In this document: in pieces, positions 13,407-23,615 of the stretch
Position numbering within the stretch: the stretch's first letter is position 1
How the letters are laid out: every line of letters starts with the position of its first letter
Sequence record: OR699282.2
From: Escherichia phage BAU.Micro_ELP-22
DNA length: 64,000 nucleotides
Reading direction: 5' to 3' (one strand)
The notes under the pieces: generated by a model
What the model was told of the DNA's origin: nothing
Databases searched by the model: none
Seen by the model: the letters and a program-made list of their open reading frames with translations, nothing else
Made by a program: the position numbers and the translations under genes

Positions 13407-13745
13407 ATGGAACAATATTTTGAATTAATAAACAAAGTATCATTTTATGTAGTATCTTTGGTTTGGGTGTATTATATGTTTTGCTACATTATTGCATTCT
13501 TCCGATACACTACTTTATATGAACGTATCTACTATGATGCCCCAATTTCATTCTTGATGTTTTGTGCATGTACGTGGGGAATATTAGAAGTACTGATATG
13601 TGGGTATAGTACTGATGAATTAAATCTGGTATCGGTCTTGACTGGGTTTTCATTTGTTGTTATGATAGCTGCCGTTCCAGTATGGTTGTTCTTTGGACTA
13701 GTTCATCGCATTGATATATGGCGTTCTAATATCCCTGAAAAGTAA
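13407..13745 (+). CDS. small membrane protein, paralog family M
   Basis: 112 aa, hydrophobic; C-terminal basic tail (RSNIPEK) shared with paralogs. Confidence 0.65.
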   Translation: MEQYFELINKVSFYVVSLVWVYYMFCYIIAFFRYTTLYERIYYDAPISFLMFCACTWGILEVLICGYSTDELNLVSVLTGFSFVVMIAAVPVWLFFGLVHRIDIWRSNIPEK

Positions 13746-13748
13746 GGA

Positions 13749-14096
13749 TTGGTAATGATTTATTACACTAACATGTTTGCCTATGCTGTTGCTTGCATTT
13801 ACATTGTTTACTTCTTATTCGGTGGAGTACTGTGCTTCTTTAAGTACAAAACGTTGTTCAACCGAATGTACCCAAATCATCCAATTGTAGTTGTACTTTT
13901 GATTCTTTCAGTTTCTCAAATAATCGTTGAAACTACAATGGGTATCAGTAGTGTACATTATAGTTTTGGCACTATAGTAATTATTACTATGCTTATTGCA
14001 TACATTTTAGTACTTGGATATGGTATCTTTGGTAATATTGGTATGAAAATGTATCATCGAATTAAAACATTACGTGATAATCTACCGGAGCGTTGA
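13749..14096 (+). CDS. small membrane protein, paralog family M
   Basis: 115 aa; tail RDNLPER. Confidence 0.65.
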   Translation: MVMIYYTNMFAYAVACIYIVYFLFGGVLCFFKYKTLFNRMYPNHPIVVVLLILSVSQIIVETTMGISSVHYSFGTIVIITMLIAYILVLGYGIFGNIGMKMYHRIKTLRDNLPER

Positions 14097-14097
14097 T

Positions 14098-14442
14098 ATG
14101 TATAATTTGAACCTAATCTCATATATTATAACAACACTGTTTACATTCTATGCCTTTGTTGGTATAATCCTACTGTACTTTAAATTTTATAAAGTGTTTA
14201 ACCGTTTCTATCCTTCAATGGAGAATGAGTTTTTCTTTGTGTTGTACGTAGGTTACACATTAATGGCTACATGTTTCACTGTAGCCGATGGTGTCATCGG
14301 CATTAAAACTGATTCCCCAAATGGTAGTACGCTGGTTGCATTTATTCTTACTGGATTCCTTGCAACTTATATTGCCTTCATTACAACATGGTCAGTGGTT
14401 GAATTTCTCTTGCGACTACGAAAGAATATGCCGAATCGATAG
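14098..14442 (+). CDS. small membrane protein, paralog family M
   Basis: Start at internal ATG; tail RKNMPNR. Confidence 0.6.
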   Translation: MYNLNLISYIITTLFTFYAFVGIILLYFKFYKVFNRFYPSMENEFFFVLYVGYTLMATCFTVADGVIGIKTDSPNGSTLVAFILTGFLATYIAFITTWSVVEFLLRLRKNMPNR

Positions 14443-14451
14443 GAGACATAT

Positions 14452-14706
14452 ATGTTTGCGTTGCGTAATAAAAACACTAAAGAATTATTATGTATTGATA
14501 CCGTATGGGATTGTGCGGGATCAACTACAGTTCTTGAAGAAGGAACTGGATATTGCGTGTTTGTTGTTCATGATAGGAATGAACTCGAATTATTACTTGC
14601 TGAGTTCAATGCTGGTGGTAATCCTAACAGTACTGAATACCCTGAGATTATCAATCCAGCACCACCAGGCTCTTATGAAATTCTACAACTGTGGGAGTTG
14701 AAGTAA
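14452..14706 (+). CDS. hypothetical protein
   Basis: ORF 84 aa; SD AGGAGA. Confidence 0.6.
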   Translation: MFALRNKNTKELLCIDTVWDCAGSTTVLEEGTGYCVFVVHDRNELELLLAEFNAGGNPNSTEYPEIINPAPPGSYEILQLWELK

Positions 14707-15086
14707 TGCGTCAAATGCACAAAGTAACCGAGCTAAACAAGCGTCTGGTTAAACAATCAATGTTCGAGGATAAAGAGTCTTATTATAACTTTAAACGTGC
14801 TGTAGAGGCTGCTATCCACATTCAGAAGCTTAAAGAACGTGGTTGTATTATTCTGGAAAATGGGTCGGAAGTTGTAACGGATGACTTTAGTGTAGCGTTT
14901 GATGTTTCACCTGACGGGACGCTATCAATGCCCCGCTTAGGAACTGGAAACATGACTGTTTGGGTTGGCTTCACTATGGGGAATGTACCTGGTACTGTGT
15001 ACGTAGATGATGCGGAATTGAAAGACAGTTTCAAAAACTTATCTTATCTTGAACCACAATACGCACATGAAATGAATTTATTTTGA
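14706..15086 (+). CDS. hypothetical protein
   Basis: Start at internal ATG after GGAG (126 aa). Confidence 0.55.
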   Translation: MRQMHKVTELNKRLVKQSMFEDKESYYNFKRAVEAAIHIQKLKERGCIILENGSEVVTDDFSVAFDVSPDGTLSMPRLGTGNMTVWVGFTMGNVPGTVYVDDAELKDSFKNLSYLEPQYAHEMNLF

Positions 15087-15087
15087 G

Positions 15088-21176: not shown

Positions 21177-21514
21177 TGTTAACATTCTTTAAGTCAGATA
21201 CAATGCTTAGTATTACTTTGATTTATCTGTTTGGTTTTTTCTTTTATCATGCACTAGTTGTAGTACTATGGTATTTTAAAAAGAAAATTGTTTTTAAACT
21301 GTATCCAGTGAGGAATTCATCACTAGTTCTTTACACACTTGTTCAAGGTTTGTTTGCAATTGTTGGTCTTATGGCACACTTAATTTATTGTGCTAATCCT
21401 CACTTGAACTCAATCTCACAATATATTGTATTCTTTGGGTTGTTCATTTGGTTAGTTGTATACTTAATCCATCTCATTATTCATGGTAGAGATAAAATTC
21501 GCGGAGACTTCTAA
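21176..21514 (+). CDS. small membrane protein, paralog family M2
   Basis: 112 aa; near-duplicate N-terminus of previous gene. Confidence 0.65.
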   Translation: MLTFFKSDTMLSITLIYLFGFFFYHALVVVLWYFKKKIVFKLYPVRNSSLVLYTLVQGLFAIVGLMAHLIYCANPHLNSISQYIVFFGLFIWLVVYLIHLIIHGRDKIRGDF

Positions 21515-21861
21515 TGTTTGAAGCTTATCTTGAGTTTTTAAGGAGTAGTCCAGTTGCACATTCAATTGCAGGGATTATTCTAACAGGTTATGTAACATTT
21601 TGGGTAGTTATGTTTCTAGGATGGTATTTTAAACGACAATTCTATAAGCGTAATGGTGAAGATTTTATGAATTCTTTCATTAATCAATCGTTGTTTGCAT
21701 CAACATTGATTGCATGTATTGTGGCTGTTCTAGCCGGAAAAGCACTACCTGCTTTTTCAGTCGTTTATGGAACAATTGGTATGATATGTGTAGTTTTTCA
21801 CTTGATCATTAAACTTTGTTGTGTTATGATTGACCTTCGAAACAAGATACCGGAGGAATGA
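21514..21861 (+). CDS. small membrane protein, paralog family M2
   Basis: 115 aa; tail LRNKIPEE. Confidence 0.6.
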   Translation: MFEAYLEFLRSSPVAHSIAGIILTGYVTFWVVMFLGWYFKRQFYKRNGEDFMNSFINQSLFASTLIACIVAVLAGKALPAFSVVYGTIGMICVVFHLIIKLCCVMIDLRNKIPEE

Positions 21862-22196
21862 TGGAATATTTTTTACACTTACTGCCGTGGTATATGAAAG
21901 TTAGTACCATGTACTATATTATTAGTGCTGGATTCTACTTTCTGATGTGGTTCTTTAAACGACCAATTTCAGTATTCATCGCTGATAACATGCTGCAATT
22001 AAAATTACACGCATGGTTTGGTATGGCGATGATTATGCCTATTATTCACTACTCAATGATTAGTAGAGGTTTCCGTTCTAATGGTGAACCAATTGTATTA
22101 GTATTCTATTGGGGTTCAACTATTGCATATGTAAGTTTGTTGTTGTTCCCAGTCGTTCATAAGTTACGTGCTAAAGTTCCTGATGCGAGGTACTAA
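21858..22196 (+). CDS. small membrane protein, paralog family M2
   Basis: 112 aa; tail LRAKVPDARY. Confidence 0.6.
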   Translation: MMEYFLHLLPWYMKVSTMYYIISAGFYFLMWFFKRPISVFIADNMLQLKLHAWFGMAMIMPIIHYSMISRGFRSNGEPIVLVFYWGSTIAYVSLLLFPVVHKLRAKVPDARY

Positions 22197-22510
22197 TGGA
22201 TATAGTAACATTGATTTACACGTTGTATTCATTCTATTTCATTATGTGTTGGGTTGGATTTTTATTTGTACTCAAGATGTTTGATTATGTTGAAAAACAG
22301 ATAAAAGAATTTTGTATTCCTTTTATCGGTTCAACCATTATTAGTGTTTCTTGTGTGTATTTTTTGGTTTTTGATCCACCAGATAACACTGCAATGATTG
22401 ACTTGATGTTACTACCAACAACTGTTACTTTTTTATGTAGTCTAATGCCGCCGATTAGCCGTGGACTAACAGAATTTAGACGCAATCAAAAGCGTAAACG
22501 AGGGATGTAA
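22196..22510 (+). CDS. small membrane protein, paralog family M2
   Basis: 104 aa; hydrophobic. Confidence 0.55.
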   Translation: MDIVTLIYTLYSFYFIMCWVGFLFVLKMFDYVEKQIKEFCIPFIGSTIISVSCVYFLVFDPPDNTAMIDLMLLPTTVTFLCSLMPPISRGLTEFRRNQKRKRGM

Positions 22511-22878
22511 TGGAAATTGCTCTTATTATCTTAACTGCTATGCTGTTTATTAGTACTGTGGTTATAATTGGTAAATTCTTTTGTGTATCATTTTTAGAAA
22601 CGGTATACGATGAAATTGCTGATGATTATGAATTACAAGCCGGATTTTTCATTACGTATTGGCTTAGTTTATTTTGTCTAGTCATTGCTTGGATTTTACA
22701 TATCTTTAAATGGGGTATGGTAGACGGTGATCCTATTATGGCAATTATTGTTCTAGTGTTTGGTATCCTTGGTGGTGCAGTGCATAATCTAATGGTTATC
22801 TGGCAAACTGTTCAATATGTTTTGGTTCCCTATTTCGAAAAGATGCACAGTACAATTAAAAAACGTAAACGAGGTTAG
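22510..22878 (+). CDS. small membrane protein, paralog family M2
   Basis: 122 aa; tail KKRKRG. Confidence 0.55.
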   Translation: MEIALIILTAMLFISTVVIIGKFFCVSFLETVYDEIADDYELQAGFFITYWLSLFCLVIAWILHIFKWGMVDGDPIMAIIVLVFGILGGAVHNLMVIWQTVQYVLVPYFEKMHSTIKKRKRG

Positions 22879-22879
22879 T

Positions 22880-23242
22880 ATGAACGGGATAGAATTATCT
22901 TTCGTTGGTCAATTACTAGTAATGGCGTATACATTTATCTTCTCACTGAATGCATTCGTGTGCATTGGGAAGTACTTCCATAAGCGACCATTATCAAATA
23001 TATATGATGTAATCCAAAAGAGATATAGTCCAGCATATACTGTGTTGGGTACAGTATTCAATTTTGGTTTTATTGTATTAATAATTGGACTGTTCACATC
23101 CTCTTTGAATACAATAACCTTCGGTCTTATGATATGTTCATTGGTATTAGCCGTAATTATATGTTGTTTAGTACTGCACCTTGTGGTACTATTGTATATA
23201 AAGATCTCTGAAATCCACCAACGTTTGGGTATGAGGAAATAA
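22880..23242 (+). CDS. small membrane protein, paralog family M2
   Basis: Internal ATG with SD GAGG (120 aa). Confidence 0.55.
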   Translation: MNGIELSFVGQLLVMAYTFIFSLNAFVCIGKYFHKRPLSNIYDVIQKRYSPAYTVLGTVFNFGFIVLIIGLFTSSLNTITFGLMICSLVLAVIICCLVLHLVVLLYIKISEIHQRLGMRK

Positions 23243-23243
23243 T

Positions 23244-23615
23244 ATGAGTTACCGTGAGATATTTTCCATTATTTCAATTATTATGTTCAGTACTGGAACA
23301 CTGGTATGGTTATTATACTTCTTCTGTATTAATCCAGTGTATAATATGTTATGTAATATTAAATCAAGTGCCGGATATATCACTTTTATGGTCTTTATGG
23401 GATATTATTGTCTAAGCATTTTAGGTGTTGTTTTGGTTGTTATATTTGATGTGGGACCAAATAGTGATGGTATGGAAATACATGAATTAATAACCATGTT
23501 TGGATGTATGATACCAACAGCACTACTGTTTGTAGCTACTGGTAGTGGATTGATAAAATTATATAATTATTTAAAATCCATTCATAATTCCATTCATAAT
23601 AAGCGTATGTCATAA
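23244..23615 (+). CDS. small membrane protein, paralog family M2
   Basis: 123 aa; hydrophobic. Confidence 0.55.
   Translation: MSYREIFSIISIIMFSTGTLVWLLYFFCINPVYNMLCNIKSSAGYITFMVFMGYYCLSILGVVLVVIFDVGPNSDGMEIHELITMFGCMIPTALLFVATGSGLIKLYNYLKSIHNSIHNKRMS

Follow-up and report, generated by a model that had tools for sequence, protein, structure and literature searches.

T4 Imm and Sp are small, non-essential, early inner-membrane proteins of a T4-related myovirus, and they act at the envelope. Class I holins such as lambda S105 have three transmembrane (TM) segments, an N-out/C-in topology and a charged C-terminal cytoplasmic tail. In T4-like phages, PeSL elements are early promoter/terminator motifs that flank variable cassettes and have been proposed to mediate cassette exchange (Comeau, PMC4122927). 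In this study, we analyzed two arrays of small genes, A1-A3 and B1-B8, in a 64,000-nucleotide stretch of Escherichia phage BAU.Micro_ELP-22 (sequence record OR699282.2; the whole stretch is called the window hereafter), and we compared them with these three systems. Genes of this kind have already been deposited, singly labelled as hypothetical or putative membrane proteins, and the plastic regions of T4-related phages are known to carry small early membrane proteins. What is new here is their unification in one family with a signature, a fixed genomic address with an ancient ordered array, the contrast between conserved gene order and rapid sequence divergence, and evidence against a role in lysis.

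When positions 13000-24000 of the window were compared with other phages, 98.7% nucleotide identity was observed with Escherichia phage SHEFM2K. About 60 other jumbo phages of the 121Q/PBECO4/RaK2 group, which is now divided into the genera Asteriusvirus and Alcyoneusvirus and their relatives, were also matched. Judged by these matches, the window is that of an Asteriusvirus-type jumbo phage. An earlier note, made from the letters of the window, had listed eleven open reading frames (ORFs) here, and all of them were found at the coordinates given. The likely starts were chosen from alignment and the SHEFM2K annotation, with ATG where supported, and the resulting products have 104-123 amino acids (aa; Table 1). 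The SHEFM2K annotation labels the counterparts of all eleven as hypothetical proteins.

Subsequently, the relationship among the eleven products was examined. Plain pairwise BLASTP linked A1 with A2 (1.5e-9), A2 with A3 (1e-5), B1 with B2 (54% identity) and, weakly, B2 with B3, and no other pairs. Profiles were then built from the homologous loci of nine relatives, with one alignment per positional orthologue group, and compared by hhalign. The CMSTMSU record was left out of the alignments; in that record (MH494197, L006) the array genes at 3676-13419 are split into 16 fragments, for which frameshift errors of an unverified assembly are a likely cause and real pseudogenes are not. The profile comparison gave 99.9% for B1-B2, 98% for A1-A2, 97% for A1-A3, 96.6% for B3-B4, 87.5% for A1-B3, 87% for B6-B8 and 81% for B6-B7; B3 was the hub connecting the A array, B1/B2 and B4. 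The remaining groups were joined by weaker full-length links with scores of 20-30, and the highest score in 55 control comparisons with reversed profiles was 14.3.

Furthermore, when hmmsearch was seeded with A1-A3 and iterated (inclusion 1e-5), all eleven window ORFs were recovered, with 0 of 794 reversed decoys and no unrelated ORF, the other small membrane ORFs of the loci included. All eleven matched the iterated family profile over their full length, with E values from 2e-19 to 6e-30. In two metagenome contigs that had not been part of the profile training, 10 (L011) and 9-10 (L015) tandem matches were observed, and Pectobacterium phage CBB gave two matches; the T4 nrdC region gave none. 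Because the profile links, the iterated search and the controls agree, the eleven genes form one superfamily and are, on this alignment evidence, paralogues of one divergent family. The relationship between copies, which the earlier note had proposed, thus goes beyond shared hydrophobicity; its division into two families gives way to a single superfamily with deep subfamilies that spans both arrays.

The window proteins are full-length members of PHROG families 19285, 19454, 19046, 27396, 33258, 26405 and 27618, all described as of 'unknown function', with E values of 1e-50 to 1e-70; only A3 matched weakly, at 3e-4 to 19285, and the SHEFM2K annotation gives A3 and B7 no PHROG. Whereas PHROG keeps seven separate families, they are merged here as one superfamily with a common signature. 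Homologues in phage phi92, suggested by 'Phi92_gp233' and 'Phi92_gp231' notes in the ph0011 annotation, were dismissed as spurious; the sizes of the genes in question do not fit, and a search of phi92 at 132-146 kb with the family profile gave no match.

Among 99 unique members, the signature consists of two nearly invariant positions. TM1 ends in [FY]-F-[KC], whose F is present in 94 members, and the tail begins with an R or H, present in 97, before x-[KN]-[IL]-[PK]-x-[KR]. In the window family, full-length profile matches go together with both parts of this signature. Three Kyte-Doolittle segments were found in ten of the eleven window proteins, as the earlier note had described, and in 90 of the 99 members. 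The remaining window protein, B4, has one segment at the strict threshold, its TM1 and TM2 being less hydrophobic than in the other copies, and still aligns with them over its full length. In the 90 three-segment members the mean number of K+R was 3.1 in loop 1 and 4.5 in the C-tail, consistent with the basic tail noticed earlier, against 0.47 in the N-terminus and 0.52 in loop 2, and every one of them obeyed the positive-inside rule for N-out/C-in. The N-terminus is therefore predicted to be periplasmic and the C-terminus cytoplasmic. Independently, TMHMM notes in the annotation of Klebsiella phage Muenster indicate N-out/C-in for five of eight orthologues. An AlphaFold2 (AF2) model of B3 (predicted local distance difference test, pLDDT, 75.7) showed a short N-terminal helix (2-11) and then three long helices (13-39, 48-73 and 80-111). 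The conserved positions of the family lie on one membrane face. Taken together, these findings predict that the family proteins are small inner-membrane proteins with three TM helices, an N-out/C-in topology and a basic cytoplasmic C-tail.

The distribution of the family proved narrow. When 1.84 billion representative proteins were searched with the profile, 29 matched, all of 56-127 aa, and a word-indexed search returned close relatives only, on contigs of jumbo-phage size; neither search found host homologues suggesting mimicry. As far as these searches reach, the family is confined to RaK2-like jumbo phages. Indeed, the complete 352-kb genome of the relative ECO103 4-12-1 (OR844650) contains exactly eleven members, all inside the two arrays. 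Scans of members with Pfam (E<=1), NCBIfam (E<=0.1) and PADLOC gave nothing above noise, and a Foldseek search of PDB and BFVD with the AF2 model returned the family alone.

The genes were as tightly packed as had been claimed, with junctions of -4 to +9 nt overall and -4 to +1 nt in B1-B8. At every junction a Shine-Dalgarno-like GGAG, GAGG or AGGA for the downstream gene lies inside the last four to five codons of the preceding gene; these embedded sites span 13404-14098 and 21150-23244 of the window. Such a layout of junctions and ribosome-binding sites is consistent with translational coupling and is as would be expected for it. The C-terminal residues that code for the ribosome-binding sites are PE (CCGGAG), RG (CGAGG) and GD (GGGGAT). 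Since the tail motifs PE[RK] and GDF overlap the ribosome-binding site of the next gene, their conservation may be partly at the nucleotide level, and the C-terminal residues probably serve in part a double purpose, as protein sequence and as ribosome-binding site.

The B array was always found after a gene for a T4 NrdC.10-like AAA/P-loop ATPase, which matches the T4 protein with a phmmer E value of 7.6e-52. This arrangement is shared by the window, eight Asteriusvirus loci, the Alcyoneusvirus phages RaK2 and Muenster, CBB (Mimasvirus) and two metagenome contigs. The arrays CPT_Muenster_554-561, CBB_539 with CBB_543-545, and the GAP32 'putative membrane protein' genes are direct homologues in the same position after the ATPase, annotated singly and without family assignment or proposed function. 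A functional coupling of ATPase and array was considered and set aside, because the NrdC.10 orthologue is widespread (1,309 phage records); T4, which has the ATPase and lacks the array or any nearby family member, and the promoter-like site in front of B1 weaken it further.

Between seven and ten B-array genes were kept across three genera and the two metagenome contigs. The order of the B4-B5-B6-B8 orthologues is identical in RaK2, that is, between Asteriusvirus and Alcyoneusvirus, and the subfamily order of the window and RaK2 is largely colinear even though the array proteins share only 23-39% identity. This retention and order, together with the B1-B8 junctions, the ribosome-binding sites embedded in preceding genes and the conserved positions on one membrane face, would suit paralogues that are subunits of one hetero-oligomeric inner-membrane assembly, such as a channel, pore or scaffold, in which coupling would fix the ratios. 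However, copy number varies, being 3+8 in the window, 3+7 or 1+7 in other phages and about 4-5 in CBB; the RaK2 locus examined has 0+8, without an A array. Moreover, B1 is absent from EC.P1, BF17 and phAPEC6, B5 is duplicated in some close relatives, and phage operons are commonly this compact, irrespective of any complex formed by their products. We consider such an assembly unlikely on balance, although the conserved subfamily order and retention keep it alive. A narrower form of it, in which the B array would be an ordered set of co-translated, distinct subunits predating the RaK2-like genera and forming a hetero-oligomeric channel or scaffold or a holin/antiholin timing device, seems to us somewhat less likely again.

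The array genes diverge far faster than their surroundings. When the window was compared with phage A4, the ATPase (96%), denV (95%) and orf15163 (97%) were nearly identical, whereas the array proteins were 25-66% identical; more generally, flanking genes are 95-99% identical where the array proteins fall in this range. Within orthologue groups, conservation was lowest in TM3 (45%) and highest in the N-terminus, TM1 and loop 1 (63-66%). The whole-gene dN/dS by Nei-Gojobori was 0.03-0.48, and the array genes are thus kept by purifying selection. The spread of dS from gene to gene was wide (0.06-1.4), and the ATPase itself falls in two classes, about 97% identical to the window copy in EC.P1, BF17 and A4 and about 58% identical in UE-S1, ph0011 and Turkey5, in phages whose neighbouring genes are otherwise similar. 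The wide variation of dS and the two identity classes of the ATPase point to mosaic exchange, and the latter indicates that the ATPase was probably swapped for a divergent allele by recombination. Just upstream of the unit formed by the ATPase and the B array, a 474-aa ORF at 18504-19928 is annotated as a homing endonuclease in SHEFM2K. Its slot, which looks like a mobile insertion site, is empty in UE-S1 and is occupied by a DUF4379 protein in Turkey5 and by an 'exonuclease ABC C subunit' in phAPEC6.

We also examined the elements that precede the arrays. Both array units are headed by a repeated composite element, AAAGGGTTGACTTCGGTCRGCCCTTTTTGCTATAAT, in which a -35 hexamer lies in a stem-loop and a consensus -10 follows. 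The window contains ten copies of AAAGGG(A)TTGACT..GTCAG(T)CCCTTT on the + strand, at 6503, 9742, 11271, 12355, 16928, 18212, 19932, 57389, 60380 and 62643, most of them followed by a TATAAT-like -10 hexamer. The element is thus a terminator-like stem-loop with the -35 in its 5' arm, AAAGGG(A)TTGACT-loop-GTCAG(T)CCCTTTTT, usually followed by GCTATAAT. To our knowledge, PeSL elements have not been reported earlier for RaK2-like jumbo phages. The PeSL cassettes of T4-like phages likewise have an A3-4G3-loop-C3T3-4 stem-loop with a near-consensus sigma70 promoter (PMC4122927), and the same combination, with predicted promoter activity, is repeated in the window in spaces beside variable genes. 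As in those cassettes, the elements flank variable accessory genes, and mosaic divergence lies beside conserved neighbours. In contrast, the phages of the PeSL literature (Arbiol 2010; Comeau, Arbiol and Krisch 2014, PMC4122927) are T4-like, with genomes of 160-250 kb, and their cassettes are mostly single ORFans, whereas the window carries an ancient multi-copy membrane-protein family in a RaK2-like phage of about 350 kb.

In the ECO103 genome, 97 strong sigma70-like sites were found on the coding strand and 11 on the other, with about 27 expected on both strands together. The T4-type late motif TATAAATA was strongly depleted, with 2 copies in the window against 15 expected and 14 in ECO103 against about 98. 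The two copies in the window, at 9313 and 9961, lie just upstream of ORFs 9357 and 9987, whose phAPEC6 counterparts are the virion proteins gp035c/gp037c, and the scan of the window found none near the arrays; this suggests that the motif may have been purged except where it is functional. The homologous genes of CBB lie in a region that its authors predicted to be early (PMC5259590). A literature search for transcriptomes, protein localisation and functional studies of these genes, covering Asteriusvirus and RaK2-like phages, gave nothing relevant. From the promoter context, we infer that the arrays are expressed early.

The early-type promoters bear on a reading suggested by topology, namely that one or more members are the holin/antiholin of RaK2-like phages, a class-I-type holin timing lysis. 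With about 100-125 aa, three TM segments, an N-out/C-in orientation predicted for all 90 three-segment members and in the Muenster TMHMM notes, and a basic hydrophilic C-tail, the array proteins match the class I description. On the other hand, no Pfam (E<=1) or NCBIfam (E<=0.1) holin family was matched; the units are headed by sigma70/PeSL-like and not by late promoters, with no TATAAATA nearby; and eleven copies are far more than in any lysis system known to us. Holin genes are usually linked to endolysin or spanin genes, whereas the endolysin of ECO103 lies at least 145 kb from either array, with a two-TM candidate of its own nearby. Linkage of holin and endolysin is not obligatory, as T4 t and e are unlinked. 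The 74-aa two-TM protein of ECO103 is a plausible holin or pinholin candidate from its predicted features and position, and a more conventional one than the array genes. Because the authors of the RaK2 study recognized no T holin or RI antiholin (PMC3622015), the holin reading keeps some room. Promoter context, location and copy number nevertheless disfavour it; a holin role for the array genes is unlikely, and among the explanations treated here we regard the lysis-timing one as the least probable, with a small chance of being correct.

Table 1. Array genes and associated features in the window and, where named, in ECO103 4-12-1
Feature	Position	Strand	Description
A1	13407-13745	+	112 aa, three-TM family member, PHROG 19285
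A2	13755-14096	+	113 aa from ATG (115 aa from TTG 13749), PHROG 19285
A3	14098-14442	+	114 aa from ATG (listed ORF: GTG 14074), weak PHROG 19285 match
B1	20835-21176	+	113 aa, PHROG 19454, 54% identical to B2
B2	21176-21514	+	112 aa, PHROG 19454
B3	21514-21861	+	115 aa, PHROG 19046
B4	21858-22196	+	112 aa, PHROG 27396
B5	22196-22510	+	104 aa, PHROG 33258
B6	22510-22878	+	122 aa, PHROG 26405
B7	22880-23242	+	120 aa from ATG 22880 (longest ORF: 22817), no PHROG in SHEFM2K annotation
B8	23244-23615	+	123 aa, PHROG 27618
PeSL-like element	12355-12391	+	heads the unit of kinase, orf13123, A1-A3 and two further ORFs
Promoter-like site with hairpin	13058-13086	+	TTGACA-17-TATTCT, between kinase and orf13123/A1
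PeSL-like element	19932-19968	+	AAAAGGGTTGACTTCGGTCGGCCCTTTTTGCTATAAT; stem-loop with -35 hexamer, then TATAAT; heads the unit of ATPase and B1-B8
T4 NrdC.10-like AAA/P-loop ATPase	19997-20767	+	conserved neighbour 5' of the B array; outside the family, listed for context
Promoter-like site	20777-20805	+	TTGACA-17-TACTAT (10/12), encloses 8-bp hairpin, 30 nt upstream of B1
Inverted repeat	23620-23645	.	ATCCAGTACT-TGAT-AGTACTGGAT, 11 pairs by scan, 5 nt past the B8 stop
Endolysin	ECO103 4-12-1 (OR844650) 200640-201599	minus	N-terminal TM, LysM, Phage_lysozyme (Pfam 1.5e-11)
Two-TM protein	ECO103 203762-203986	minus	74 aa, acidic C-tail, 2.2 kb upstream of the endolysin

A place in the virion was likewise rejected. 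The phAPEC6 orthologues (gp012c-017c and gp028c-029c) are absent from its published virion proteome of 62 proteins identified by mass spectrometry, a method by which small hydrophobic proteins are easily missed.

The arrays were also compared with T4 Imm and Sp. They too lie in an early-type, plastic, non-structural region, and early expression and an inner-membrane location, as in Imm and Sp, would be in keeping with the promoter motifs and the topology predicted. In contrast, Imm and Sp are each encoded by one gene and have fewer TM segments, whereas eleven three-TM paralogues are present here, and no homology to Imm or Sp was found in Pfam, including Imm_superinfect at E<=1, or in PHROG. 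The earlier note had suggested superinfection exclusion, injection blocking or holin-like roles, and the indirect evidence divides these. Whereas it speaks against a holin, the early-type promoters, the non-virion status in phAPEC6, the N-out/C-in topology and the hypervariability are compatible with, though no proof of, superinfection exclusion, injection blocking or another accessory role at the envelope. We tentatively propose that the arrays encode early inner-membrane effectors that exclude superinfecting phages or have another envelope-directed role in takeover. This is the possibility to which we give the first rank, ahead of the inhibition of host membrane proteins and the hetero-oligomer, which come next and equal, with the holin/antiholin last.

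According to this proposal, host RNA polymerase would transcribe both arrays from the sigma70 PeSL-like elements as two tightly coupled operons, and the products would not be packaged in virions. Soon after infection, the proteins would insert in the host cytoplasmic membrane on a conserved scaffold, in which [FY]-F-[KC] closes TM1 on the cytoplasmic side and [RH]-x-[KN]-[IL] forms the juxtamembrane tail, while the variable TM2, TM3 and periplasmic loop would engage different targets at the membrane level. The most probable effect would be that the infected cell is closed to competing phages by a block of DNA entry, that is, superinfection exclusion; additionally or instead, host inner-membrane components might be neutralized or taken over. 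The set would have arisen by ancient tandem duplication, and its diversity may have been kept because the copies went on diverging and because cassettes were exchanged at the promoter/stem-loop elements on either side.

Alternatively, the members could be anti-defence or host-takeover effectors that each inhibit a different host inner-membrane protein, such as an abortive-infection effector, a protease or a transporter. The early-type promoters, membrane location and hypervariability apply equally to them. In addition, the A array shares one transcription unit with a T7 gp0.7-like protein kinase, a classical host-takeover gene, identified by annotations and, for its homologues in the two metagenome contigs, by a match to Pfam Phage_T7_kinase. 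However, neither a PADLOC or other match indicating a target nor a host homologue suggesting mimicry was obtained, and in silico these effectors are inseparable from exclusion proteins. We regard this alternative as unlikely, to the same degree as a hetero-oligomer.

Several observations weigh against early effectors of exclusion or envelope takeover. No homology ties any member to exclusion or to a host target, and the exclusion proteins known to us are single genes, not ordered sets of 8-11. The conserved B4-B5-B6-B8 order would be expected of a complex or of members with fixed, distinct roles more than of an arms-race battery with fast turnover; subfamily order and retention are the main observation that a battery of effectors explains poorly. 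The most variable part is TM3 and not the periplasmic loop, and this variability could simply come from weak constraint on residues that face the lipid. The whole-gene Nei-Gojobori analysis, with dN/dS below 1 everywhere, detected no positive selection. As for expression timing, it is based on promoter motifs only, and the local promoter scan gave 75 sites against 74.8 expected from shuffles, so that only the strongest sites are informative.

RaK2-like jumbo phages are therapeutic and model phages, and more than 80% of their genes are without known function. Eleven hypothetical genes and seven unconnected PHROG families now become one defined family with a signature, a predicted topology, a fixed address and an evolutionary pattern of ancient duplication, conserved order and fast divergence. 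The arrays provide a compact candidate locus for the early re-engineering of the host inner membrane by a giant phage, with competitor exclusion, the neutralizing of membrane-acting defences or new membrane assembly as possible roles. The label 'holin', tempting from topology alone, is set aside.

Other genes were observed within or beside the arrays. In RaK2 (L008, 9843-9971), L015 (4715-4843) and L011 (4077-4205), a 42-aa ORF lies inside the B array after the second gene. Its products in RaK2 and L015 are conserved and soluble (MKPEQWIIDDMR...), and the L011 copy is a called gene only; none was present among the window ORFs examined. Directly 3' of the array, a lipobox protein is encoded in RaK2 (L008, 12821-13417), Muenster (L003, 12794-13381) and CBB (L012, 10747-11370), which is a DUF1190 protein in CBB and has the annotation of an outer-membrane lipoprotein in Muenster. 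The matching slot of the window (23657-24319) holds an unrelated soluble 220-aa ORF. The inverted repeat just past B8 had a terminator-like score on the minus strand only.

Between the arrays, two small hydrophobic ORFs at 15934-16185 (83 aa) and 17548-17742 (64 aa) are non-members, without a profile match at E<=10; in contrast to the array genes, the former shows 96-100% conservation in the relatives that were examined. Two small soluble ORFs, at 14452-14706 and 16568-16837, are paralogous to each other, and the SHEFM2K counterparts of both belong to PHROG 8563. Finally, about ten tandem paralogues of 245-460 aa, which are RCC1/WD40_RLD-repeat proteins, were found on the minus strand at 24300-37140. 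They are annotated as 'DNA condensation' or 'regulator of chromosome condensation' in relatives and share about 30% identity between related phages, and several of their phAPEC6 homologues (gp003-010) are virion proteins.

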